Source of the DNA: Actinomycetota bacterium
GTDB taxonomy: Bacteria > Actinomycetota > UBA4738 > HRBIN12
Length of the DNA: 64,000 bases
Direction: 5' to 3'
NCBI GenBank assembly: GCA_036374435.1
Contig: DASUTU010000153.1
Coordinates: 7,393 to 71,392 of the forward strand
Positions within the stretch are counted from its first letter, which is position 1. The number at the start of each line of letters is the position of its first letter. The notes beneath the pieces are model-generated. The model searched no databases, was not told the DNA's origin, and saw only the letters and a program-made list of their open reading frames with translations. Below, in pieces: positions 55,144 through 64,000 of this stretch. Position numbers and translations under genes: made by a program.

Positions 55144-57888
55144 ATGCCCGTGGCCACCAAGGAGGGGGACGTCCAGGTCATCCGCGACGGCCTGACGTTC
55201 AAGCGGTACTTCACGCGGGACGGGGTGCACCCGTACGACGAGATCGAGTGGGAGCGCCGCGACGCGGTCATCCCGAACTTCAAGGAAGGCGGGAACGCCT
55301 TCGAGCAGCGCGACGTCGATTTCCCCGTCACCTGGTCCCAGAACGCGACGAACATCGTCGCGCAGAAGTACTTCCGCGGCCCCCTCGGCAGCCCCGAACG
55401 TGAGTCCAGCGTCCGCCAGCTCGTCGGTCGGATCGTCGACACGATCACCGGCTGGGGCAAGAAGGGCGGCTACTTCGCGAGCGACCAGGACGCTCAGGTG
55501 TTCGCGGAGGAGCTCTCCCATCTGCTCGTCCACCAGAAGGCGGCGTTCAACTCGCCGGTGTGGTTCAACCTCGGCATCCCCAACACGGCCCAGCAGTGCA
55601 GCGCGTGTTTCATCCTCGCCGTGGACGACCAGATCTCCTCGATCCTGAACTGGTACGCGGAGGAAGGGGTCATCTTCAAGGGCGGATCGGGCTCGGGCAT
55701 CAACCTGTCCACGCTCCGCTCGTCCAAGGAACGGGTGAACGGAGGCGGGACCGCCAGCGGTCCGGTGTCGTTCATGCGGGGGGCCGACGCCAGCGCCGGC
55801 ACGATCAAGTCCGGCGGCAAGACGCGGCGGGCCGCGAAGATGGTCATCCTCAACGCCGACCACCCCGACATCCGCGACTTCATCTGGTGCAAGGCCCTCG
55901 AGGAGCGCAAGGCGCGGGCCCTGCGCGACGCCGGATTCGACATGGACCTGGACGGCAGGGACAGCTACTCGATCCAGTACCAGAACGCGAACAACTCGGT
56001 GCGCGTCGCCGACGAGTTCATGAAGGCGTACGAGCAGGACCAGGACTGGAAGCTCAAGGCCGTGCTCTCGGGCGAGCCGGTCGAGACGGTCCGGGCCCGG
56101 GACCTGATGCGCGAGATCGCCCAGGCTGCGTGGGAGTGCGCCGACCCCGGCATGCAGTACGACACCACGATCAACGAGTGGCACACCTGTCCGGCCAGCG
56201 GCCGGATCAACGCGAGCAACCCGTGCAGCGAATACATGCACCTGGACAACAGCGCGTGCAACCTGGCCTCGCTCAACCTGCTGAAGTTCCTCGACGCCGA
56301 TGGCAACTTCGACGTGCGGGCGTTCCGCAAGGCGGTGGACATCGTGTTCACCGCGCAGGAGATCATCGTCGGCAACTCGGACTACCCGACGGAGAAGATC
56401 GGCCTGAACGCGCGGGCGTACCGCCAGCTCGGGCTGGGCTACGCGAACCTCGGCGCGCTGCTGATGGCGCGGGGCAACGCCTACGACTCGGACGGCGGGC
56501 GGGCCTGGGCCGGCGCCATCACGGCGCTCATGACCGGACAGGCCTACCGCACCAGCGCCCGGATCGCCGGGGTGATGGGCCCGTTCGAGGGCTACGCGCC
56601 GAACGCGGACGCCATGCTCCGCGTCATGCGCAAACACCGCGCGGCGGCCGACGAGATCGACGGCGACCTCGTGCCGGAGGGCCTGCTGTCGGCGGCCAAA
56701 CAGTCGTGGGACGACGCGATCGCGTTCGGAGCGAAGCACGGCTACCGGAACGCGCAGGCCACCGTGCTCGCGCCCACCGGCACGATCGGGCTGATGATGG
56801 ACTGCGACACCACCGGCATCGAGCCCGAGCTCGCACTGGTCAAGACGAAGAAGCTGGTCGGCGGCGGCACGATGCAGTTCGTCAACCAGACGGTGCCCCG
56901 GGCGCTCGCGCGGCTCGGCTACACGCGCGAGGAGACCGAGGACATCGTGGCCTACATCGCCGAGAACAACTCGGTGGCCGAGGCCCCGCATCTCAAGCCG
57001 GAGCACCACGAGGTGTTCCACACGGCGATGGGGGACCAGCCGATCCAGTACATGGGGCACGTCCGGATGATGGCGGCGGCCCAGCCATTCATCTCCGGCG
57101 CCATCAGCAAGACGGTCAACATGCCCGAACACGTCACGGTCGAGGAGGTCGAGCAGCTGTTCCTCGAGTCGTGGAAGCTCGGCCTGAAGGCCGTCGCGAT
57201 CTACCGCGACAACTGCAAGGTGGCCCAGCCGCTCTCGGCCGACAAGAAGACGAAGGCAACCGTCGCCGAGCCCGCCGCGCTGCCGGAGCCGATGCGCAAG
57301 CGCCTGCCGCGGAGCCGGCCCTCGATCACCACGAAGTTCGAGGTGGCCGACGCCGAGGGCTACATCACGGCCAGCACGTACCCCGACGACGGGATCGGCG
57401 AGATCTTCCTGAAGACCTCGAAGCAGGGCTCGACGCTCGCGGGGATCACCGACGCCTTCTCGATCGCCGTCTCGATCGGCCTCCAGTACGGGGTCCCGCT
57501 CGAGACCTACGTGGCGAAGTTCATCAACATGAAGTTCGAGCCGAGTGGGATGACGAACGACCCGGACATCCGGTTCGCCACGTCGATCGTGGACTACGTG
57601 TTCCGCCGGCTGGCCCTCGACCACCTGTCGCAGGACAAGCGGGAGGGGCTCGGGATCCGCTCGATCGAGGAACGCAAGGAAACCGCGGCGTCGGAGGCGG
57701 CGGAGAAGATGAACATGCCGCCACCGCCGAAGGCGGAGGCCTCGAACCCGCGGCCGATCGAGCTCGTGCCCGGTCCGCAGGCGCAGGCCGCCGACGCGCC
57801 GCTGTGTTACGCGTGCGGCTCGAAGATGCAGCCGGCGGGAAGCTGCTACGTCTGCCCGAGCTGCGGCTCGACCAGCGGCTGCTCGTAA
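55144..57888 (+). CDS. nrdJ: class II (adenosylcobalamin-dependent) ribonucleotide reductase NrdJ
   Basis: 914 aa. NrdJ-specific N-terminus (IRDGLTFKRYFTRDGVHPYDEIEWERRD), active-site Cys regions (NPCSEYMHLDNSACNL), and a C-terminal Cys-rich zinc-ribbon tail CYACGSKMQPAGSCYVCPSCGSTSGC. Confidence 0.95.
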   Translation: MPVATKEGDVQVIRDGLTFKRYFTRDGVHPYDEIEWERRDAVIPNFKEGGNAFEQRDVDFPVTWSQNATNIVAQKYFRGPLGSPERESSVRQLVGRIVDTITGWGKKGGYFASDQDAQVFAEELSHLLVHQKAAFNSPVWFNLGIPNTAQQCSACFILAVDDQISSILNWYAEEGVIFKGGSGSGINLSTLRSSKERVNGGGTASGPVSFMRGADASAGTIKSGGKTRRAAKMVILNADHPDIRDFIWCKALEERKARALRDAGFDMDLDGRDSYSIQYQNANNSVRVADEFMKAYEQDQDWKLKAVLSGEPVETVRARDLMREIAQAAWECADPGMQYDTTINEWHTCPASGRINASNPCSEYMHLDNSACNLASLNLLKFLDADGNFDVRAFRKAVDIVFTAQEIIVGNSDYPTEKIGLNARAYRQLGLGYANLGALLMARGNAYDSDGGRAWAGAITALMTGQAYRTSARIAGVMGPFEGYAPNADAMLRVMRKHRAAADEIDGDLVPEGLLSAAKQSWDDAIAFGAKHGYRNAQATVLAPTGTIGLMMDCDTTGIEPELALVKTKKLVGGGTMQFVNQTVPRALARLGYTREETEDIVAYIAENNSVAEAPHLKPEHHEVFHTAMGDQPIQYMGHVRMMAAAQPFISGAISKTVNMPEHVTVEEVEQLFLESWKLGLKAVAIYRDNCKVAQPLSADKKTKATVAEPAALPEPMRKRLPRSRPSITTKFEVADAEGYITASTYPDDGIGEIFLKTSKQGSTLAGITDAFSIAVSIGLQYGVPLETYVAKFINMKFEPSGMTNDPDIRFATSIVDYVFRRLALDHLSQDKREGLGIRSIEERKETAASEAAEKMNMPPPPKAEASNPRPIELVPGPQAQAADAPLCYACGSKMQPAGSCYVCPSCGSTSGCS

Positions 57889-57892
57889 GACG

Positions 57893-58264
57893 ATGGGGTA
57901 CCGGGTCACCGGCCTGCACCACGTCCAGCTGGCCATGCCGCCGGCGGAGGAGGATGCGGGGCGAACGTTCTACGGCGAGCTCCTGGGCCTGCCCGAGGTG
58001 CCGAAGCCCGAGGCCCTCGCCCCGCGGGGCGGGTTGTGGTTCCGGGAGGGCCCGATCGAGGTCCACCTGGGGGTGGAGCGCGAGGGTTTCACCCCCGCCC
58101 GCAAGGCCCACCCGGCGTTCGTGGTCGAGGGCCTGAACGAGCTCCGGACGCGCCTCGAGGACGCCGGGTACCGGACCGCGGACGACGCGCCGATCGACGG
58201 CTACCGCCGGTTCCACGTCCGGGACCCCTTCGGCAACCGTCTCGAGCTCCTCGAACCGGCGTGA
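57893..58264 (+). CDS. VOC / glyoxalase-bleomycin-resistance family protein
   Basis: GLHHVQLAMPPAEEDAGRTFYGELLGLPEV...FHVRDPFGNRLELLE paired beta-alpha-beta-beta-beta modules. Confidence 0.8.
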   Translation: MGYRVTGLHHVQLAMPPAEEDAGRTFYGELLGLPEVPKPEALAPRGGLWFREGPIEVHLGVEREGFTPARKAHPAFVVEGLNELRTRLEDAGYRTADDAPIDGYRRFHVRDPFGNRLELLEPA

Positions 58265-58701
58265 CCCCCTCGCTCCCGTTCACGCGGCTGGACCCGGGCG
58301 CGGTGTTGCCCGAGCGGGCTCACCCGGGGGACGCCGGGCTCGACCTTCGCTCGGCGATCGACGTCGACGTGGGGCCGGGGGAGCGGGCCATGGTGCCGAC
58401 CGGCCTGTCGGTGGCGATCCCCGAGGGGCACGCGGGGCTGGTGCTGCCGAGGAGCGGCCTGGCCAGCCGGCAAGGGCTCACGCTCGCGAACGCACCGGGA
58501 CTGATCGACGCCGGGTACCGAGGCGAGGTCGTCTGCGCCGTGGTCAACCTCGACCGGAACGAGCCGGTCACGATCGCCAGAGGCGACCGGGTGGCGCAGC
58601 TCGTGATCGTGGCCGTGCCGGAGCTCGAGCCGGTCTGGGTGGAGGCGCTCCCGCCGTCCGCCCGCGGCGAGGGCGGGTTCGGCTCGACCGGGATGCAGTG
58701 A
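58261..58701 (+). CDS. dut: dUTP diphosphatase
   Basis: GTG overlaps the preceding stop. PGDAGLDLRSA, RSGLASRQGL, GLIDAGYRGEV, and GEGGFGSTG at the C-terminus are the five dUTPase motifs. Confidence 0.9.
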   Translation: MTPSLPFTRLDPGAVLPERAHPGDAGLDLRSAIDVDVGPGERAMVPTGLSVAIPEGHAGLVLPRSGLASRQGLTLANAPGLIDAGYRGEVVCAVVNLDRNEPVTIARGDRVAQLVIVAVPELEPVWVEALPPSARGEGGFGSTGMQ

Positions 58702-59246
58702 CCGTCCGGATCCGCCTCGAGGAGCCGGCCGACCGGGCGGTCTCCGTTGAGATCGAACGGTTGGCGTTCGGCTCGGACGCGGAGGCGGCGATCGTCGAAG
58801 CCGTGCGGGACGAGGACGGCTCGTTCGCCCTCGTCGCCGAGGAGGACGGCATCGTGGTCGGGCATATGCAGTTCAGCCGCGCCTGGGTGGGCGATGTCCC
58901 CGTCCTCGCGCTGGGCCCGATCGGCGTCCTGCCGGACCGGCAGGGGAGTGGGATCGGCTCCGCGTTGATGCGCGCGGGGCTGGACGAGGCGCGGGCACGC
59001 CGGGAAGCGGCGGTCGTCCTGTTCGGCGACCCGGCGTTCTATCAACGGTTCGGGTTCGAGCCCGGGATCAAGTTCGGGCTGCCGAACCCCTATACGGGCA
59101 TGTCGATGCCTGACGGGGAGGTCGTCGTGGAGGAGAACTTCCTGCTCGCGCCGCTGGACGAACGGGCGCGATCGCTGTCGGGGGCGGTCCGCTGGCATCC
59201 GGCGCTGGCCAACGCGCCGGTTGAAGGCGGGGGTCCGGCTCTCTAG
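58698..59246 (+). CDS. GNAT-family N-acetyltransferase
   Basis: GNAT core LGPIGVLPDRQGSGIGSALMRAGLDEARARREAAVVLFGDPAFYQRFGF. GTG overlaps the dut stop. Confidence 0.7.
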   Translation: MTVRIRLEEPADRAVSVEIERLAFGSDAEAAIVEAVRDEDGSFALVAEEDGIVVGHMQFSRAWVGDVPVLALGPIGVLPDRQGSGIGSALMRAGLDEARARREAAVVLFGDPAFYQRFGFEPGIKFGLPNPYTGMSMPDGEVVVEENFLLAPLDERARSLSGAVRWHPALANAPVEGGGPAL

Positions 59247-59262
59247 ACTCGATGGGCACAAC

Positions 59263-59338
<76 letters not shown>

Positions 59339-59369
59339 GGAGAACTGCCTCTGACCAGCGGCAATGCGA

Positions 59370-59396
59370 AGGCCCCCGGACTGGGGGCCTTTCTTT
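59370..59396 (+). terminator. intrinsic terminator after tRNA-Gly (AGGCCCCCGGACTGGGGGCCTTTCTTT)
   Basis: 7-bp GC stem GGCCCCC/GGGGGCC with loop GGACT, followed by TTTCTTT. Confidence 0.7.
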
Positions 59397-59689
59397 GCGG
59401 GCCGATCCACCAACGAAAGACCAACGAAACGTCTGACGGCTCGGCGTCCGGACCGTGGCCACGAGCGTTCCTGAGCGGCACGATCCCAGCGCCAGTCCTT
59501 GCCGGGGGCTGTGGTCGCGCCAGTCTTGCGGCCGTCGGGGTCGGAGCAGGGCATCGGTCATCCTCCGTGCAAGAGAGCGGGGGTCGAGAGCGCGTCGGTG
59601 CGAGTCGATAGCAGGCTCCCGTCTTCGCCGATCTCGATCGAGGCGTGCTGTTCGCCCAGGGGGCGGGACGCACTTCGTCGGGTCGAGGC

Positions 59690-60110
59690 GGTTGCAGGAA
59701 GCGAGGGCGACGACGTTCTCGGATGCAGACAACGACCTGTTCGGGTAAGGCGGGGATGACGTCCTCATCGGTCGGGACGCCCAAGCGTCGACGCGCTCGC
59801 CTCCATCGAGGCCGTCGGCAGAACGATCTTCGATGACGTGCTGCTGGGTGCTGGTGACAACCTCCTGGTCGGCTACGGGGGGAGTGACTCGATCTCCGGA
59901 GGTGCCGGGGACGATCTGCTCGATGGAGACACGTTCGTGTTGGGCGTTCCGTTCGACCTCGATGGGAACGACGACCTCATCGGGGGGGCGGGTACGGACA
60001 CCTGCCTCGGCGGGGAGATGCCGAGCGAATGCGAGAACCTCGAGCTGGCGAGCAGCGTTGCCGTGAGTGGCCCGACGGCACCCGGCTCGATGTATCTCGA
60101 GAGCTTGTCT
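59690..60110 (+). pseudogene. frameshifted remnant of a calcium-binding RTX-like (GGxGxD repeat) protein
   Basis: GGAGDDLL / GAGDNLL / GGSDSISGG / GSEGDDVLG motifs are spread over two reading frames with no credible start. The region is wedged between tRNA-Gly and the convergent large regulator gene. Confidence 0.3.
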
Positions 60111-60111
60111 C

Positions 60112-63100
60112 CTAGCGGACCCAGAGCTGGCCCACCAAGACGCCCCAGTGCGGATGGGCCTGGTAGTTCCCCACTCGGTCAGAGACGAGACGAACGTCGA
60201 AAGGGTTCGCGAGTGGGACCCAGGGAGCCTGGTCCACGATCCGCCGGTCGACGGCCGCCCAGAGCTTGGCCGCGGCGGCCGGTTCCGTTGTCTCCAACGT
60301 GCGGGCCTTGTCCATCATCGCGTCGATCCTCGGATCACAGAAGCCGTTGACGTTGTCCGGCGCGCCGCATTCGAGCTGCAACGATAGGAAGGTCGAATCG
60401 CCAGGGAAGTCGGCGCTCCAACCCCTGGGGAAGATGTGGATGCGCCGCTCTGGGTGGGCAATGCCATGTTCTTGGATGTACCGGGGGATGTCGTCCACCA
60501 CCTTGAGGCTCGACCGGTACCCGAGTTCTCGCAGGAGTTTGACGAGGTACCGAGCGATGGAGGGCGCCGCCCCCCTCACGTCCGCTCGCTGCGCCCACAC
60601 CCGAACGCGAGCCCCGGTCGTCCCGGAGGCAGCCACCAGATCCCGAGCGCGGACTGGATCGGGCGCGGTCCAGATGCCCGCCGTCCCTGGCCGGCTGGTA
60701 TACGGGCAGTACGGCTCGTACTGGGGGAAGGTGGGCGGGAGGACCTGGCAGGTTGGACGGGCCTGCCCTCCTGCCACCAGCTCTGCCACGCGCTGTCGAT
60801 CCACGGCGTAGTTCACGGCCTGCCGAGCCCTTACGTCGTTGAAGGGAGGCGCCATCAGGTTGAGGACCGCGAAGGCCGTCGTCGATGCCGGGAAGGTGTG
60901 CATCTGACCTGGGTTGTTCGCCATCAACCGCCCCACCCCATCGGGGGGAGGGGGGCGGAACATCACGTCGGCCCGACCTGCCAAGACCTCCTCCACCGCC
61001 CGCTCGGCGGGGACGCCGAATCGCCACACGATCCGATCGGGAAACCCCTCCGGCTGGGCGGCCGGGGACCACTCCTGGAACTCCGGGTTGCGCACGAGCT
61101 CGACCTGCTCGGGTGTGGAGCTTGCGATCATGTACGGCCCGGTCGCGGGGAGGAGCTCCGCGCCGATATCCGGATCGGGCGCTCCGGGCGGTACGGCGAA
61201 GGCGAAGGAGAGGGCGAGCTTCGACAGGAATTCCGTATCGGGTGCCTCGAGGAGGAACGTTACGGTGTTGGCCTCCTCATCCACCACGATGCCCTGATGA
61301 AGATCACAGCTTTGCGGTTGGCGGAGGCAGCCCTCGGCCCCGACGATGCTCCGGTAGAGGTCGGCCCGGGGGGACCCCAGGATGAGGGTCCTCTCGATTG
61401 CGCGACGGAAATCCTCTGGCCGGACTGTCGCGCCGTTCGAATACCGGATCCCGGAGCGAAGCTGGAACGTGTAGGTCGTCCCGCCTTCCGTGGGGGTGGG
61501 GAGCGACCGGGCAAGATTCGGAACCAGGGTGGTCCCCTCCAGGCCGCCGGCACGCTTGAAGGCGACGAGGCCGTCGTTGGTCAGACTCAGGATGCTCCAC
61601 GCAGCACCGGAGTAGGCCGTCGCCGGATCAAGCGAGCCCACCTCGTAGTCGACGAGCACCGTGAGGTTCCCCCCACGATGGGCCTCCTCGGCGGCACGCA
61701 CGCCCACCCACAGGGAGCCATCGACGCCCGCCGCCCCACCAGTCTCTGCTCCGACGGCGAAGCTCTCCACCTCGTTTGATCGAGGGTCGATCCTCGATAC
61801 CGTCCCGTCCAGCTCGTTGGCGACCCACACCCACCCCCCGCTCAGCACGACGGTCGCTGGACCGCCTCCGACTCGGATCGTCGACTCGACGGCGTTGGTC
61901 CTCGGATCGATCCTCGACACGGTGTCATCGAGTTGGTTGGCAATCCAGATGCCGCCTTCCCCGCTCGCAAGCCCCAGGGGTCCGTTCCCGACAGATACGG
62001 TCGCGACCTCGACCTCTCTCTTAGCGTCGATCCTCGAGACGGTGCCTGACCCATAGTTCGTGACCCATAGGGCGTCGTCGGCGACGACGATCCCGCTGGG
62101 CCGGTCCCCGACCGCGATCGAGGCTTCCACCTCGCCGATCTCGGGTTCGATCCGGGACACGGAGTCATCCAACGCATTCGCGATCCAGAGCGCGCCGCCT
62201 CCAACGGCGATTCCTACCGGTCCTCCTCTGGTTTCGACGGTCTCAACCACCGAGTTCGTGTCGGCACTGATCCGCGAGACCGAAGATCCTCCGGCGTTGG
62301 CGACCCACACGGAGCCGCCCGAAACAGCGATGGCCGAGGGATCTGGGCCGACCTGGATCGTGTCGACGACGGCCCGCGTGTCCGGATCGATCCGAACGAC
62401 GATGCCCCGGTCGGGTTGGGCCACCCAGACCGCCCCTTCCCCCACGACGAGGGCACCGGGCCTCCCATCGAGCTCGATGGCCCCGGCGATCTCGCCGGTT
62501 CGAGGATCGATGATGGCGACGGCGTCGTCGCCGATCTCGGTGACGGCTCCCCGATCGAGGAGCGTAAGCGGCACGGCCGCGGCTACGACCAAGGCAGTCG
62601 CAGCGACGAGGGAAGCGACCGGGTGGTTCCGGATCAGAGAGCCGCGGTAGCGAGGTCGGGAGACCTGCACGGTGCCCGTCGCCTCGGCGGAAGCCTTCGG
62701 GGGATCGAGCACGGGATCCTGGGCGAGGATCCGCTCGTGGAGCCGGGTCAGGTCTGTCGACGGATCGACGCCGATCTCCTCGGCGAGCGTTCGACGGGCG
62801 CGACCGAACGCCGATAGCGCGTCGGCCTGACGGCCGGAACGGTAGAGAGCCAGCATGAGATGCGCCCACAGCCGTTCCCGGAGCGGGTGCCTCGCCACCA
62901 GCCCCTCGAGCTCCGGGATCACGTCGCGGTGCCGGCCTAGGCCCAGGTCCGCGGCGAGGCGGTCCTCGAGTGCGGTCAGACGGATCTCCTCGAGGCGAGT
63001 GATCTCGCCGGCCAGGCTCGGCTCGTCGGCCACATCCGCGAGGGCCGGACCTCGCCAGAGCGAGAGCGCCTCCTCCAGGGTCGAGGCCGCGGCGTCCGGA

Positions 63101-63438
63101 TCGTCGGCGTGCTGTTTCCGGGCGTCAGTCACGAGTCGCTCGAACCGGCGGGCGTCCACCTCCTGAGGCTCGGCCTTGAGGGCATAGCCTGCCGGCCCGG
63201 TGGTGATCCTTTCGGCACCCAGGGCCTTGCGTAGATGCGAGATATGACTCTGCAGGGTGTTGCGGGCCGCCTCGGTGGCATGCTCCCGCCACAGCTCGTC
63301 GATCAGACGGTCGGGGGATACTGGTTGGTTGACTCGGGTGAGCAGGTACGCGAGCACCGCGCGCTGCTTCGGACCCCCGAGCGGGATCCGGCGGGTGTCG
63401 TCCGACACTTCCAACGGTCCCAGGACTCGGAAGTCCAT
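60112..63438 (-). CDS. 1108-aa one-component membrane regulator: SARP-type OmpR/PhoB winged-helix, BTAD, one TM helix, 7-bladed YVTN beta-propeller, then a family-5 solute-binding (SBP_bac_5, DppA/NikA-like) domain
   Basis: N-terminus MDFRVLGPLEVSDDTRRIPLGGPKQRAVLAYLL...ALYRSGRQADAL (SARP plus BTAD). TM HPVASLVAATALVVAAAVPLTLL. Seven repeats of about 40 aa (IDPxTxxVVxTIxVGxxPxGIAVxGGxxWVANxxDxTVSR). C-terminal 520 aa has SBP_bac_5 character (LTVLVDYEVGSLDPATAYS...WSADFPGDSTFL). Confidence 0.85.
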   Translation of the reverse strand: MDFRVLGPLEVSDDTRRIPLGGPKQRAVLAYLLTRVNQPVSPDRLIDELWREHATEAARNTLQSHISHLRKALGAERITTGPAGYALKAEPQEVDARRFERLVTDARKQHADDPDAAASTLEEALSLWRGPALADVADEPSLAGEITRLEEIRLTALEDRLAADLGLGRHRDVIPELEGLVARHPLRERLWAHLMLALYRSGRQADALSAFGRARRTLAEEIGVDPSTDLTRLHERILAQDPVLDPPKASAEATGTVQVSRPRYRGSLIRNHPVASLVAATALVVAAAVPLTLLDRGAVTEIGDDAVAIIDPRTGEIAGAIELDGRPGALVVGEGAVWVAQPDRGIVVRIDPDTRAVVDTIQVGPDPSAIAVSGGSVWVANAGGSSVSRISADTNSVVETVETRGGPVGIAVGGGALWIANALDDSVSRIEPEIGEVEASIAVGDRPSGIVVADDALWVTNYGSGTVSRIDAKREVEVATVSVGNGPLGLASGEGGIWIANQLDDTVSRIDPRTNAVESTIRVGGGPATVVLSGGWVWVANELDGTVSRIDPRSNEVESFAVGAETGGAAGVDGSLWVGVRAAEEAHRGGNLTVLVDYEVGSLDPATAYSGAAWSILSLTNDGLVAFKRAGGLEGTTLVPNLARSLPTPTEGGTTYTFQLRSGIRYSNGATVRPEDFRRAIERTLILGSPRADLYRSIVGAEGCLRQPQSCDLHQGIVVDEEANTVTFLLEAPDTEFLSKLALSFAFAVPPGAPDPDIGAELLPATGPYMIASSTPEQVELVRNPEFQEWSPAAQPEGFPDRIVWRFGVPAERAVEEVLAGRADVMFRPPPPDGVGRLMANNPGQMHTFPASTTAFAVLNLMAPPFNDVRARQAVNYAVDRQRVAELVAGGQARPTCQVLPPTFPQYEPYCPYTSRPGTAGIWTAPDPVRARDLVAASGTTGARVRVWAQRADVRGAAPSIARYLVKLLRELGYRSSLKVVDDIPRYIQEHGIAHPERRIHIFPRGWSADFPGDSTFLSLQLECGAPDNVNGFCDPRIDAMMDKARTLETTEPAAAAKLWAAVDRRIVDQAPWVPLANPFDVRLVSDRVGNYQAHPHWGVLVGQLWVR

Positions 63439-63828
63439 GCGCGAACGATACGCTCGCCGCAGTCGGGGGTGAACCCGTCAGCCGGCCTCCAGCGCGTTTC
63501 CAGCTCTCCGTCAGGCGCCGATCGCACCGTGCCGCCGAGAGCGCCCGAGGGGCGCGGGGAGAGAAGGGAGGCCCAGATGACCACCGAGATCGAGATGGGG
63601 AGACGGACCCGCGGGGGGCGGATGGCCGTCGGATTCTTCGTGGCGACGCCGGCCAACGCCGCGCGTCGCTCGTGTCTCGGTCGCAAGGCTCGATCCGAGG
63701 CGAGGGATTATGACCTCCATCCGACGCGCGTTCCTGGGCGCTTTGCGTCACGCAAACCCGCGCAACGGTCACTCCGATGATCCGCGCATGTTCACTGGGC
63801 AACCAGACGCCCGACCGCCCACCCCCGG

Positions 63829-64000
63829 TGAGACTTCGGTCGGCGCGCTCCCGCGCGAACGCGATCTGGCTTCTCATGGCGCTGACGCTTGCGGCCTGTC
63901 AAGGAGAAGTCGATCACGGACCAGGCGGAAGCACCGACACCGCTGCCGCGACACCCGTCGACCAGGGACCGACGCCGACCGAGGCTGCGGAACGAGCCGT
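63829..64000 (+). CDS. putative lipoprotein, N-terminal fragment (continues beyond window)
   Basis: GTG 63829: VRLRSARSRANAIWLLMALTLAACQGEVDHGPGGSTDTAAATPVDQGPTPTE has a lipobox LAAC, then a low-complexity linker. Confidence 0.4.

Follow-up and report, generated by a model that had tools for sequence, protein, structure and literature searches.

The gene at 60112–63438 on the minus strand of the 64,000-nucleotide stretch of DNA analysed here (the window) encodes a protein that is probably a single-pass, N-in/C-out, one-component transmembrane transcription regulator of the ToxR/CadC class, with a SARP head as its output domain. The preliminary description of this DNA had proposed a chain of 1108 amino acids that combines a SARP/BTAD DNA-binding part, a transmembrane (TM) helix, a YVTN propeller and a family-5 solute-binding domain (SBP). 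Every structural detail of this proposal was confirmed, and the Pfam scan recovered Trans_reg_C, BTAD, propeller families and SBP_bac_5. The features of the gene are as follows.

60112–63438, minus strand: transmembrane SARP regulator, complete CDS, 1108 aa plus stop (ORF listing)
63169–63438, minus strand: OmpR-type winged-helix DNA-binding domain, residues 1-90 (Pfam Trans_reg_C, PDB matches, model)
62725–63159, minus strand: bacterial transcriptional activation domain (BTAD), residues 94-238 (Pfam, model)
62614–62706, minus strand: cytoplasmic juxtamembrane linker, residues ~245-275, predicted to be disordered, with an Arg-rich end RPRYRGSLIRNH
62637–62656, minus strand: head/sensor recombination breakpoint, residues ~261-267 (DNA identity blocks, sliding protein identity)
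62557–62613, minus strand: single transmembrane helix, residues 276-294 (SLVAATALVVAAAVPLTLL; Kyte-Doolittle)
61684–62526, minus strand: seven-bladed YVTN beta-propeller, residues 305-585 (TIGR02276, model, 1l0q fold match)
60115–61680, minus strand: family-5 (cluster C) solute-binding domain, residues 587-1108 (Pfam SBP_bac_5, phmmer, Foldseek)

The reading frame begins with ATG, and this start codon is credible, as the first residues, MDFRVLGPLEV, fit the family consensus of MxFRILGPLEV. The protein is identical to the NCBI entry HEX6332346.1 (exact database match, P0001), which is annotated as an 'ABC transporter substrate-binding protein', i.e. a SARP regulator has been mislabelled as a part of a transporter. 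The AlphaFold model of the whole protein has a pLDDT of 88.4 and a pTM of 0.70.

The head was matched by Trans_reg_C at residues 22-79 (E 4.9e-11) and by BTAD at residues 94-238 (E 7e-52). The winged helix is modelled at pLDDT above 90, with the recognition helix at about residues 56-73, and the BTAD is all-helical (helices 95-238). The closest solved relatives of the head are EmbR (2fez, E 2.6e-47) and AfsR (8hvr, 8k60 and 8jke, about 1e-41), and the homology extends over the whole ODB + BTA region (E 1e-41 to 3e-47). All 56 homologues have W50, R70 and L73. Most of the DNA contacts of AfsR, including most of the backbone contacts, are kept, which agrees with the DNA-binding role first ascribed to the N-terminus: AfsR W74 and R94 correspond to W50 and R70 (both kept in 56/56 homologues), S91 to S67 (52/56) and K95 to K71 (K or R in 56/56). 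Two contact positions are substituted, P79 by T55 and the base-specific R92 by H68, where the majority of the family has P and R. AfsR and EmbR are soluble proteins controlled by NOD/TPR and ATP or by FHA and phosphorylation, whereas the regulator lacks NB-ARC, TPR and FHA domains in Pfam and has, in their place, a TM helix and an extracellular sensor. Orthology to AfsR is ruled out by its score of 205.6 bits against the NCBIfam AfsR model, the cut-off of which is 1430.

The head is followed by a disordered linker of about 30 residues in front of the TM helix. The helix stands out on the Kyte-Doolittle scale, with a 19-residue mean of 2.25 at residues 276-294 as compared to 1.25 for the next best segment of the protein, and a hydrophobic segment is found at this position in 56/56 aligned homologues, each with a score of at least 1.92. 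AlphaFold gave no confident helix at the TM segment, where pLDDT is below 50 as it is for residues 250-299 as a whole. The mean net charge over the 56 homologues is +3.8 for the N flank of the helix and +0.4 for the C flank, and in 52 of them the N flank is the more positive. In the homologue alignment the head has a median of 0 cysteines and the ectodomain a median of 6, and the number is even in 95% of the sequences. The family-wide positive-inside bias and the ectodomain-only cysteine pattern thus support a predicted single-pass N-in/C-out topology.

The propeller comes directly after the helix on the predicted outer side of the membrane and consists of seven 40-residue blades. Pfam propeller families cover residues 306-571, the YVTN repeat TIGR02276 was found in 5 stretches (NCBIfam, E 1.1e-32), and a Trp recurs invariantly every 40 residues (338, 378, 418, 458, 498 and 538). 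The seven blades of the preliminary description are seen in the whole-protein model as 28 strands between residues 306 and 581, i.e. 7 blades of 4 strands; modelled alone, the propeller reaches pLDDT 93.1 and pTM 0.90. The DNA periodicity of about 120 bp noted earlier is also real. The autocorrelation at lags of 120, 240 and 360 is 0.52, 0.49 and 0.50, as opposed to 0.32 +/- 0.035 at other in-frame lags, and a repeat search found 5 copies of a 45-nt unit at 61783-62307 with an exact 120-nt spacing and 60-73% identity; Tandem Repeats Finder made no call for this periodicity. The best solved match is the surface-layer protein of Methanosarcina (1l0q: E 4.3e-19, TM-score relative to query 0.87, rmsd 2.2 A, 31% identity), which shares the seven four-stranded 40-residue blades and the TIGR02276 repeats. 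However, the 1l0q propeller belongs to a structural surface protein and is followed by PKD domains, while that of the regulator lies between the TM helix and the SBP of a signalling protein. A second parallel is PknD of Mycobacterium tuberculosis, whose propeller is six-bladed, of the NHL type and without an SBP domain. PknD was reportedly described by Good et al. in J Mol Biol in 2004 as a Ser/Thr kinase with a TM helix and an extracellular beta-propeller. Both are actinobacterial single-pass receptors in which a highly regular extracellular propeller is the presumed sensor, but the output of PknD is phosphorylation and that of the regulator would be direct DNA binding.

The C-terminal part is a complete SBP, as had been proposed. 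SBP_bac_5 matched residues 637-1025 (E 5.4e-52) above the Pfam gathering score, the best PDB matches in phmmer were OppA2 (2wok, 3.7e-45) and 8upi (9.8e-42), and Foldseek found 2wop (9.4e-38, TM-score relative to target 0.81), with TM-scores relative to target of 0.75-0.87 against the OppA, DppA, MppA and GsiB structures. In other words, the bilobed Venus-flytrap fold of cluster-C SBPs (OppA2 of S. clavuligerus, 2wok/2wop; 8upi; GsiB/YliB; DppA; MppA) is complete in the regulator, which is 27% identical to OppA2 in this domain. The motif W-x-x-D-[FY]-P, a putative ligand contact by analogy with OppA and DppA, is common to the regulator, OppA2 and 8upi; its Asp (D1010) is kept in just 37/56 homologues. 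The domain differs from these SBPs in that it is neither free nor lipid-anchored but forms the C-terminus of a TM regulator, that it has no cognate permease or ATPase genes nearby, and that it contains three Cys pairs invariant in the family (C704/C711, C897/C911 and C1024/C1034), which are presumed to form disulfides.

Of the 150 best-matching representatives of 50%-identity clusters, about 95 have the whole architecture, and family members in this set are 40-56% identical to the query. The best 120 clusters at 90% identity all align well, in most cases along 100% of the query's length. The same ectodomain is also found on other heads, i.e. Guanylate_cyc (class III cyclase; L011, 1.6e-11, and L019), Pkinase (Ser/Thr kinase; L069, 7e-51, which adds to the likeness to PknD), SARP+AAA_16 (P0013, P0105) and SARP+Guanylate_cyc (P0162). 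The TM-propeller-SBP unit is a portable sensor cassette. SARP-TM-propeller proteins also occur without a binding domain or with Peripla_BP_6 in place of SBP_bac_5, and the latter replacement speaks for a generic ligand-sensor slot.

If the SBP domain instead fed an Opp/Dpp-type ABC importer encoded elsewhere, with the TM helix replacing the lipid anchor and the SARP head reporting occupancy, the NCBI name would be essentially right. This is very unlikely. The domain is indeed a complete cluster-C SBP, 38-41% identical to standalone homologues in Opp/Dpp operons, and the solved structures closest to it are those of SBPs that serve transporters or bind peptides. However, Opp/Dpp-type permease genes flank 4/4 of the standalone homologues and were found within ~10 kb of 0/20 fused loci and nowhere in the 64-kb window. 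Moreover, a propeller of 280 residues separates the SBP from the membrane, the cassette occurs in fusion with three unrelated signalling outputs, and the exchange with Peripla_BP_6 argues for a sensor slot. The topology bias, the six-Cys ectodomain, the cyclase and kinase heads and the lack of adjacent permeases at fused loci all support the sensor role that had been suggested at the outset.

The regulator gene is itself a recombinant of head and sensor, joined just upstream of the TM helix. Positions 63506-62656, i.e. the head and 68 bp upstream, are 92% identical in DNA to the contig of another family member (L085, P0003), while positions 60113-62637 are 87% identical to the contigs of a cyclase-headed protein (L001/L002, P0002), and the latter block ends exactly at the stop codon. 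So clean a mosaic, with a breakpoint interval of 19 nt, is what one would also expect if a metagenome assembler or a frameshift had joined two genes, a reading that we regard as barely credible. An independent Logan assembly (run SRR28462679, contig L086) contains the same 1108-aa protein with 2 amino acid substitutions, between which the breakpoint lies, and is 99.74% identical in DNA to positions 59311-64000 over 4690 nt, both flanks included. At the junction the parent types share no sequence similarity by which an assembler might be misled, and the architecture predominates in a very large family. An assembly chimera or a decaying fusion is thus effectively refuted, and the possibility of a frameshifted two-gene locus, raised in the preliminary description, can be set aside.

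The surroundings of the recombinant gene contain the following features.

59263–59338: tRNA-Gly(GCC)
63439–63827, no strand: divergent intergenic/promoter region of 389 bp between the regulator and a lipoprotein gene
63777–64000, plus strand, running past the window end: divergent lipoprotein gene with a LAAC lipobox (translation; extension in L086)

The tRNA-Gly is adjacent to the regulator as first described, and so is an RTX-like pseudogene remnant (HemolysinCabind, E 3.8e-7), whose GGxGxD pieces are spread over two reading frames and which contains an in-frame stop. The accessory island that had been proposed on this basis is unproven: no integrase or tRNA-derived repeat was found in the 64-kb window, the composition is no different from that of the adjacent core RNR gene, and the other flank is housekeeping (NrdJ, dUTPase, GNAT). 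Gene neighbourhoods are not conserved among the family members compared, and context therefore reveals no regulon. The 389-bp region is the expected place for a target or autoregulatory site, but none was identified in it. SARP-type direct repeats were not above shuffle expectation there at spacings of 10-12 or 21-23 nt (exact 7-mer pairs: 0 vs 0.34 expected; near-exact 8-mer pairs: 2 vs 2.2 expected), and no sigma-70-like consensus was found in this region. The lipoprotein gene starts at ATG 63777 or GTG 63828. Its fragment is the N-terminus of a PHB-depolymerase-family esterase (NCBIfam NF050058, 7e-11, profile positions 4-61 of 276; PDB 8daj 'Esterase, PHB depolymerase family', 3.9e-8), and a Pfam search with it gave no match. 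This divergent gene for a secreted esterase would be the nearest candidate for a regulatory target.

We infer a ligand, a DNA target and a signalling step for the regulator, i.e. that it would sense a ligand and transduce the signal directly; our literature search found no measured ligand, DNA target or membrane localisation for any family member. A small extracellular ligand would bind between the two SBP lobes, most likely a peptide-like solute, given that OppA2 and other peptide binders are the closest relatives with solved structures. Closure of the lobes would alter the packing against the propeller or favour pairing of ectodomains, and two membrane-tethered SARP heads would thereby come together. 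In solution SARP domains are monomers; on DNA they form side-by-side dimers across two 11-nt direct repeats that overlap the -35 element, and there they contact sigma region 4 and RNAP (AfsR, PMC10936776). Given this behaviour, proximity of the heads would be expected to switch on DNA binding and activation, with the protein still in the membrane.

Alternatively, the membrane tether might sequester the SARP head until an ectodomain signal leads to cleavage in the linker or the membrane and releases a soluble activator. Residues 245-299 form a long linker that is predicted to be disordered; across the family, 63-133 residues separate the end of the BTAD from the start of the propeller. The released fragment, at ~250-270 aa, would correspond to a canonical 'small SARP' (PMC10972967). 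Regulated proteolysis of membrane-tethered regulators is established in other systems (PMC7593790). We consider this route rather unlikely here. No protease gene is consistently adjacent at the family loci, and the cyclase and kinase heads act at the membrane without release, so that a common allosteric or dimerisation mechanism is simpler for all fusions. Moreover, ToxR, TcpP and CadC are active while membrane-bound (PMC10629549, PMC12802830, PMC6320335).

It is likewise improbable that the ectodomain binds the cell's own muropeptides or surface polymer and reports wall turnover or damage, as a sensor of envelope status, which MppA and the S-layer YVTN propeller would suggest by analogy. The close fold matches include MppA and DppE, both of which bind murein tripeptide, the best propeller match comes from a surface-layer protein, and the kinase-headed variant is reminiscent of actinobacterial wall-sensing receptor kinases. 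However, the fold resembles MppA no more closely than it does OppA, DppA or GsiB, the best sequence match is OppA2, and the high diversification of the family suggests many ligands and not one conserved self-ligand.

Direct transduction from the membrane would place the regulator with ToxR, TcpP and CadC, with which it shares an N-terminal cytoplasmic OmpR-type winged helix, a disordered linker, a single TM helix and an extracytoplasmic sensor in one polypeptide and, presumably, action on DNA from the membrane. It differs in that the BTAD makes its head a SARP, as opposed to a bare winged helix, that its ectodomain of ~810 aa is unrelated to the small periplasmic domains of ToxR and CadC, and that its host belongs to the Actinomycetota. 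A census of transmembrane transcription regulators counted 50,302 of them in 9,673 genomes, 213 with a BTAD, and SBP_bac_5 does not appear in its domain table, as far as that source is accessible (PMC10269533). Transmembrane transcription regulators are thus a known kind, of which the SARP with a propeller and an SBP is an uncharacterised form, and this architecture is common in uncultured soil actinobacteria.

The ORF listing gives the regulator gene exactly the position and length that had been read from the DNA beforehand:

60112..63438, minus strand: regulator CDS, ATG start, 1108 aa

The encoded protein (P0001) contains a Trans_reg_C winged helix (residues 22-79, E 4.9e-11, 43 bits against a cut-off of 26.2), a BTAD matched over profile positions 1-146 out of 146 (residues 94-238, E 7e-52, 176 bits, cut-off 22.1), several propeller families spread over residues 306-571 and an SBP_bac_5 domain (residues 637-1025, E 5.4e-52, 177.6 bits, cut-off 32.4), all detected with Pfam. 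The YVTN repeat model TIGR02276 of NCBIfam matched in 5 stretches (E 1.1e-32, 111.8 bits, cut-off 27.85). In other words, the winged helix, BTAD, YVTN propeller and SBP_bac_5 domain named in the preliminary description were all found. An AlphaFold model of the whole regulator, built with 56 homologues as input, has a mean pLDDT of 88.4 and a pTM of 0.70; low confidence is restricted to residues 250-299, and the seven-bladed propeller and the complete SBP fold anticipated from the sequence were both recovered.

A gene of this composition could be an artefact of assembly or of fusion, the latter a doubt already raised when the ORF was described. The protein is identical to NCBI entry HEX6332346.1, annotated as 'MAG TPA: ABC transporter substrate-binding protein [Actinomycetota bacterium]'. 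The Logan assembly of run SRR28462679 encodes the same protein except for I152L and P756R, and its contig (L086) is 99.74% identical to window positions 59311-64000. Given the agreement of this independent assembly we reject an assembly chimera, and the full architecture is common among the relatives, so that we give the artefact reading next to no credence.

The head, i.e. residues 1-263, aligns from residue 1 with EmbR (2fez, E 2.6e-47) and AfsR (8hvr/8k60/8jke, E ~1e-41). An OmpR-type winged helix is located at the N-terminus according to Pfam, the PDB alignment and the confident model, and the BTAD identified by Pfam lies directly behind it. The DNA contacts of AfsR, taken from its cryo-EM study, include Q48, W74, P79, T88, R94 and K95 in the recognition helix/HTH loop (PMC10936776), and were mapped by adding 24 to the residue number of the regulator. 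W74 and R94 correspond to W50 and R70, both conserved in 56/56 homologues, S91 to S67 (52/56), and K95 to K71, which is K or R in all 56. P79 is replaced by T55 and the base-specific R92 by H68, whereas 54/56 homologues keep the P and 45/56 the R; Q48 and T88 are replaced by K24 and S64. The backbone contacts are thus kept and the base-specificity positions differ. Since the backbone-contact residues of AfsR are mostly retained, the head looks competent for DNA binding, with a base specificity of its own; with W50, S67, R70 and K71 in place, an N-terminus devoid of DNA-binding residues, which would have spoken against the original reading, is not what we see.

AfsR binds as a side-by-side dimer to tandem repeats at the -35 element and recruits RNA polymerase; SARP target sites are tandem direct repeats with an 11-nt period that overlap this element (PMC10936776). 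In the 389-bp divergent region upstream of the regulator, direct repeats with a spacing of 10-12 or 21-23 nt were not found above shuffle expectation, and a promoter/terminator consensus scan of the upstream region found nothing. Direct-repeat targets of the regulator may lie elsewhere.

Only one segment of the protein is strongly hydrophobic (residues 276-294, 19-residue Kyte-Doolittle mean 2.25; the runner-up reaches 1.25). A hydrophobic 19-mer between BTAD and propeller is present in 56/56 homologues, with a Kyte-Doolittle mean of at least 1.92. The mean net charge of the 12 flanking residues in these homologues is +3.8 before the TM segment as compared to +0.4 after it, and the N-side flank is the more positive one in 52 of the 56. 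The median number of cysteines is 0 in the head plus linker and 6 in the ectodomain, the ectodomain number is even in 95% of the homologues, and three pairs are invariant (C704/C711, C897/C911 and C1024/C1034). The ectodomain domains are members of secreted/periplasmic families. A cytoplasmic head joined to a disulfide-bonded extracytoplasmic domain is the pattern to be expected from these charges and cysteines; the N-in/C-out topology with an extracytoplasmic sensor, proposed earlier, agrees with the charge bias and the confinement of cysteines to the ectodomain, and stands as a prediction.

Residues 306-581 form 28 beta-strands in the whole-protein AlphaFold model, i.e. seven four-stranded blades. 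Modelled alone, the propeller reaches a pLDDT of 93.1 and a pTM of 0.90. Its best PDB match is 1l0q (E 4.3e-19, TM-score (query) 0.87, rmsd 2.2 A, 31% identity), the founding YVTN propeller, which comes from an archaeal S-layer protein and is the structure that the propeller of the regulator resembles most. The tandem repeats of about 40 residues and the seven blades are those of a YVTN propeller. The repeats are also visible in the DNA, where a periodicity of about 120 bp had been noticed: the autocorrelation over 61684-62526 is 0.52, 0.49 and 0.50 at lags of 120, 240 and 360 vs 0.32 +/- 0.035 at other in-frame lags, and a repeat search detected five 45-nt units at an exact spacing of 120 nt. 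By both measures the periodicity is real; Tandem Repeats Finder called no array in the propeller DNA.

The closest sequence matches of the SBP domain (phmmer against the PDB) are OppA2 of S. clavuligerus (2wok, E 3.7e-45), aligned over positions 2-515 of the 523-residue query, and the peptide binder 8upi (E 9.8e-42). Foldseek gave TM-scores (target) of 0.75-0.87 against OppA2, GsiB/YliB, MppA, DppA and OppA. The SBP_bac_5 signature and the complete bilobed fold place the domain among cluster-C SBPs; Pfam, phmmer and Foldseek thus agree that the C-terminal part is an SBP, the point on which the preliminary description had allowed for the opposite outcome.

The sensor cassette, i.e. the TM helix, propeller and SBP domain, is found on other signalling heads as well. 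It occurs on canonical class III cyclases (Guanylate_cyc 1.6e-11 in locus L011 and 8.2e-7 in L019), on a Ser/Thr kinase (L069, Pkinase 7e-51) and behind SARP plus AAA_16 (proteins P0013 and P0105), and one protein of 1293 aa (P0162) has two outputs, SARP and Guanylate_cyc, before the cassette. Conversely, the SARP-TM-propeller part occurs with Peripla_BP_6 replacing SBP_bac_5 (L030, L031) and without any binding domain (L024, L036). Another protein, P0189 (1365 aa), has a second propeller behind the SBP domain.

The family to which the SBP domain belongs raises the question of whether the regulator is a binding protein coupled to transport. Standalone SBP_bac_5 homologues with 38-49% identity to the C-terminal domain are encoded in four loci (L020, L021, L023 and L082). 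All four are flanked by OppB- and OppC-like permease genes (tblastn), and in L021 and L023 oligo_HPY ATPase genes follow downstream (Pfam); these loci probably show the transporter setting from which the sensor domain descends. The same permeases had no tblastn match in 20 loci of the fused cassette or in the 64-kb window, and the gene lists around three fused copies (P0002, P0006 and P0087) agree with this absence. The partnership with OppBC/DppBC permeases and OppDF ATPases that marks a transporter component is thus missing from the window and the 20 fused loci. A permease partner at a distance from the regulator locus is conceivable, but we consider transport coupling quite improbable, and by genomic criteria the regulator is not an ABC-transporter component. 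Since the cassette sits on other signalling heads and the fused loci lack transporter genes, we conclude from the sequence comparisons that a transporter protein of the Opp/Dpp type appears to have been the source of the SBP domain, which now serves as an input domain.

With the domains, their order and conservation, the predicted topology, the reuse of the cassette and its uncoupling from transporter genes established, we moderately favour an N-in/C-out one-component receptor that acts by ligand-driven pairing and membrane-bound activation. A ligand would be captured between the SBP lobes of the ectodomain; by analogy with the nearest relatives it would belong to a peptide-like class. The propeller and the single TM helix would relay the binding signal; in the simplest case, two receptors would be brought to pair. 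Their SARP heads would then dimerise side by side on the tandem repeats of a -35 element, where they would recruit RNA polymerase in the manner of AfsR, and activation would take place throughout with the regulator still in the membrane. We infer the dimerisation step, the target and the membrane-bound action. ToxR, TcpP and CadC regulate transcription while membrane-bound, and it is to this mode that the proposed activation is likened; release of the head by regulated proteolysis, which would dispense with it, seems to us rather unlikely. That the receptor senses the cell's own wall peptides is likewise an unlikely reading, and is really a variant of the favoured mechanism in terms of ligand identity.

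The gene itself is a mosaic. Its first 851 nt, a stretch that takes in 68 nt ahead of the start codon, share 92% identity with the contig encoding P0003, and the remainder of the P0003 gene shows just 65-72%, patchy, DNA identity to the regulator. Positions 60113-62637 are 87% identical to the two contigs encoding P0002, the closest relative of the cassette (L001 9292-12417 and L002 10001-13126), and here the similarity stops exactly at the stop codon. At the protein level, too, the regulator first follows P0003 (identity 0.94-0.98, residues 1-200) and then P0002 (identity 0.8-0.94, from residue 300 on). The breakpoint between head and cassette falls within 62637-62656 (residues ~261-267), directly before the TM helix, which indicates that recombination moved the cassette as one unit. 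By sequence comparison, the regulator is a recombinant of a P0003-type head and a P0002-type cassette. The head of P0002 matches Guanylate_cyc at an E-value of only 0.12; because it resembles by eye the head encoded in L019, which is above the Pfam threshold, we treat it as a divergent, class III cyclase-like head. As a tentative generalisation, the cassette may be a mobile plug-in sensor that uncultured soil Actinomycetota swap by recombination between SARP, cyclase and Ser/Thr kinase heads, always at the same juxtamembrane position. If this is true, the regulator would be a recent swap, with 92% vs 87% DNA identity to its parental types, and transcription, phosphorylation or cyclic-nucleotide signalling could quickly be placed under one and the same extracellular cue.

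The neighbours of the regulator in the window are as follows:

55144-59246, plus strand: core block of class II (B12-dependent) ribonucleotide reductase with TSCPD domain, glyoxalase-like protein, dUTPase and GNAT acetyltransferase
59690-60066, plus strand: decayed RTX-like gene (HemolysinCabind 3.8e-7), flanked by tRNA-Gly and the regulator's 3' end
63577-63780, plus strand: 67-aa arginine-rich ORF (MTTEIEMGRRTRGG...), gene call in L086
63777/63828-64000, continued in L086 3-494 (minus strand there), plus strand: lipoprotein gene with LAAC lipobox, cut short by the window and by the contig end

A tRNA-Gly(GCC) lies between the core block and the RTX-like remnant. The remnant lacks a start codon and a secretion signal, has an in-frame TAA and carries its GGxGxD nonapeptide repeats in two reading frames. 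Both neighbours attributed to the regulator, tRNA-Gly and RTX-like pseudogene, are therefore present. The accessory island proposed on their account is conceivable but has no positive support within the window, since no integrase or tRNA-derived direct repeat follows the tRNA-Gly there and the GC content around the regulator (0.66-0.70) is no different from that of the reductase gene. The core block has a GC content of 0.65-0.69, as compared to 0.71-0.77 at 50-54.5 kb. The surroundings of P0002 contain transposase (rve, DDE), toxin-antitoxin-type, Gp49/HTH and ERCC4 genes and an adjoining second Guanylate_cyc gene; all that the mosaic gene and these transposases show is mobility of the family on an evolutionary time scale.

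On its other side, the regulator is separated from the lipoprotein gene by the 389-bp divergent region. The lipoprotein N-terminus, read with 270 extra nt beyond the window from L086, matches PHB-depolymerase-family esterases (NF050058 of NCBIfam, 7e-11; PDB 8daj, 3.9e-8), and Pfam gave no match on this esterase-like fragment. The 67-aa ORF ends in a stop that overlaps an ATG at which the lipoprotein gene might start; the ORF has a strong Shine-Dalgarno sequence (GAAGGGAGG) and no Pfam or family match, and may be spurious in such high-GC DNA. An all-vs-all comparison of the flanking ORFs of 18 loci returned generic STAND/AAA signalling proteins and one beta-helix protein, and no regulon could be inferred from it. 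This secreted, parallel-beta-helix-like protein of ~550 aa is divergent to the regulator in three Thermoleophilia copies:

L006 8036-9718, minus strand: beta-helix-like protein
L007 227-2155, minus strand: beta-helix-like protein
L009 8331-10007, minus strand: beta-helix-like protein

A CxGC motif is found at its end in L007 and L009; in L006 the region is split over two ORFs and the C-terminal motif was not seen. The protein is a possible conserved target in this Thermoleophilia subgroup.

A word-indexed protein search returned 7906 proteins at E <= 1e-10, and the 120 best of these are almost all full length. When all 1.84 billion cluster representatives (50% identity) were searched exhaustively, the best 150 listed had at least 625 bits each, and ~95 of them align from residue ~1 to ~1108. 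Among the matches listed in species-representative genomes, the full architecture is present in MAGs labelled Solirubrobacterales, Gaiellales, Thermoleophilia, 'Actinomycetes' and Actinomycetota, and in one Chloroflexia-labelled and one Gammaproteobacteria-labelled MAG; the full-length matches among the 80 loci listed all come from MAGs, none from an isolate. The Chloroflexia- and Gammaproteobacteria-labelled members (L015 and L022, 49% and 42% identity) are full length and lie on long contigs; horizontal transfer is one explanation, wrong binning or labelling of actinobacterial contigs the other.

By the membership test the regulator is a SARP, and by class it is a TTR, i.e. a DNA-binding domain (Pfam) and a TM segment (hydropathy) in one polypeptide. 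It is not an AfsR orthologue: with the AfsR equivalog model of NCBIfam, whose cut-off is 1430 bits, it reaches 205.6 bits, and it matches over residues 2-262 only. Large AfsR-type SARPs have an NB-ARC/NOD ATPase and TPRs, whereas the regulator has no AAA, NB-ARC or TPR match in Pfam; unlike it, the variants P0013 and P0105 carry such an ATPase domain in the form of AAA_16. ToxR and CadC have a periplasmic sensor type of their own and a winged helix without BTAD, in contrast to the propeller, SBP_bac_5 domain and BTAD seen here; the functional class is common, but homology ends at the winged helix, so that membership in their family was rejected. TTRs are a recognised, widespread class. A census of 9,673 genomes counts 50,302 TTRs, of which 3,459 have Trans_reg_C and 213 BTAD, and SBP_bac_5 is absent from the census domain table consulted (PMC10269533). 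A 2024 review divides SARPs into small, medium, large and SARP-LAL classes and never mentions a membrane form (PMC10972967), and our full-text literature search found no description of a membrane-anchored SARP or of the SARP-TM-propeller-SBP architecture.

The sequences are already public, but automatic naming refers them to transport ('ABC transporter substrate-binding protein') or to their propeller ('YVTN family beta-propeller protein'), so that censuses of regulons and of signalling miss thousands of regulators. The family is large, mis-annotated and unstudied, and its principle, a tethered one-component regulator with a sensor of the periplasmic-binding-protein type, will not surprise signalling specialists. 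The cassette on cyclase and kinase heads is a natural experiment in which one sensor meets different outputs, and an SBP-defined ligand with a direct transcriptional output makes a possible biosensor chassis. SARP research has so far dealt almost solely with soluble activators of Streptomyces antibiotic clusters, and the input signals have been a long-standing gap; here, many SARPs are wired straight to an extracellular ligand-binding module, in soil-dominating and barely cultured lineages (Thermoleophilia and other Actinomycetota MAGs). If the cassette is indeed a plug-in sensor, these bacteria would have in membrane-tethered SARPs a major and so far overlooked direct link between extracellular chemistry and gene activation, and SARPs would reach well beyond the control of antibiotic clusters.
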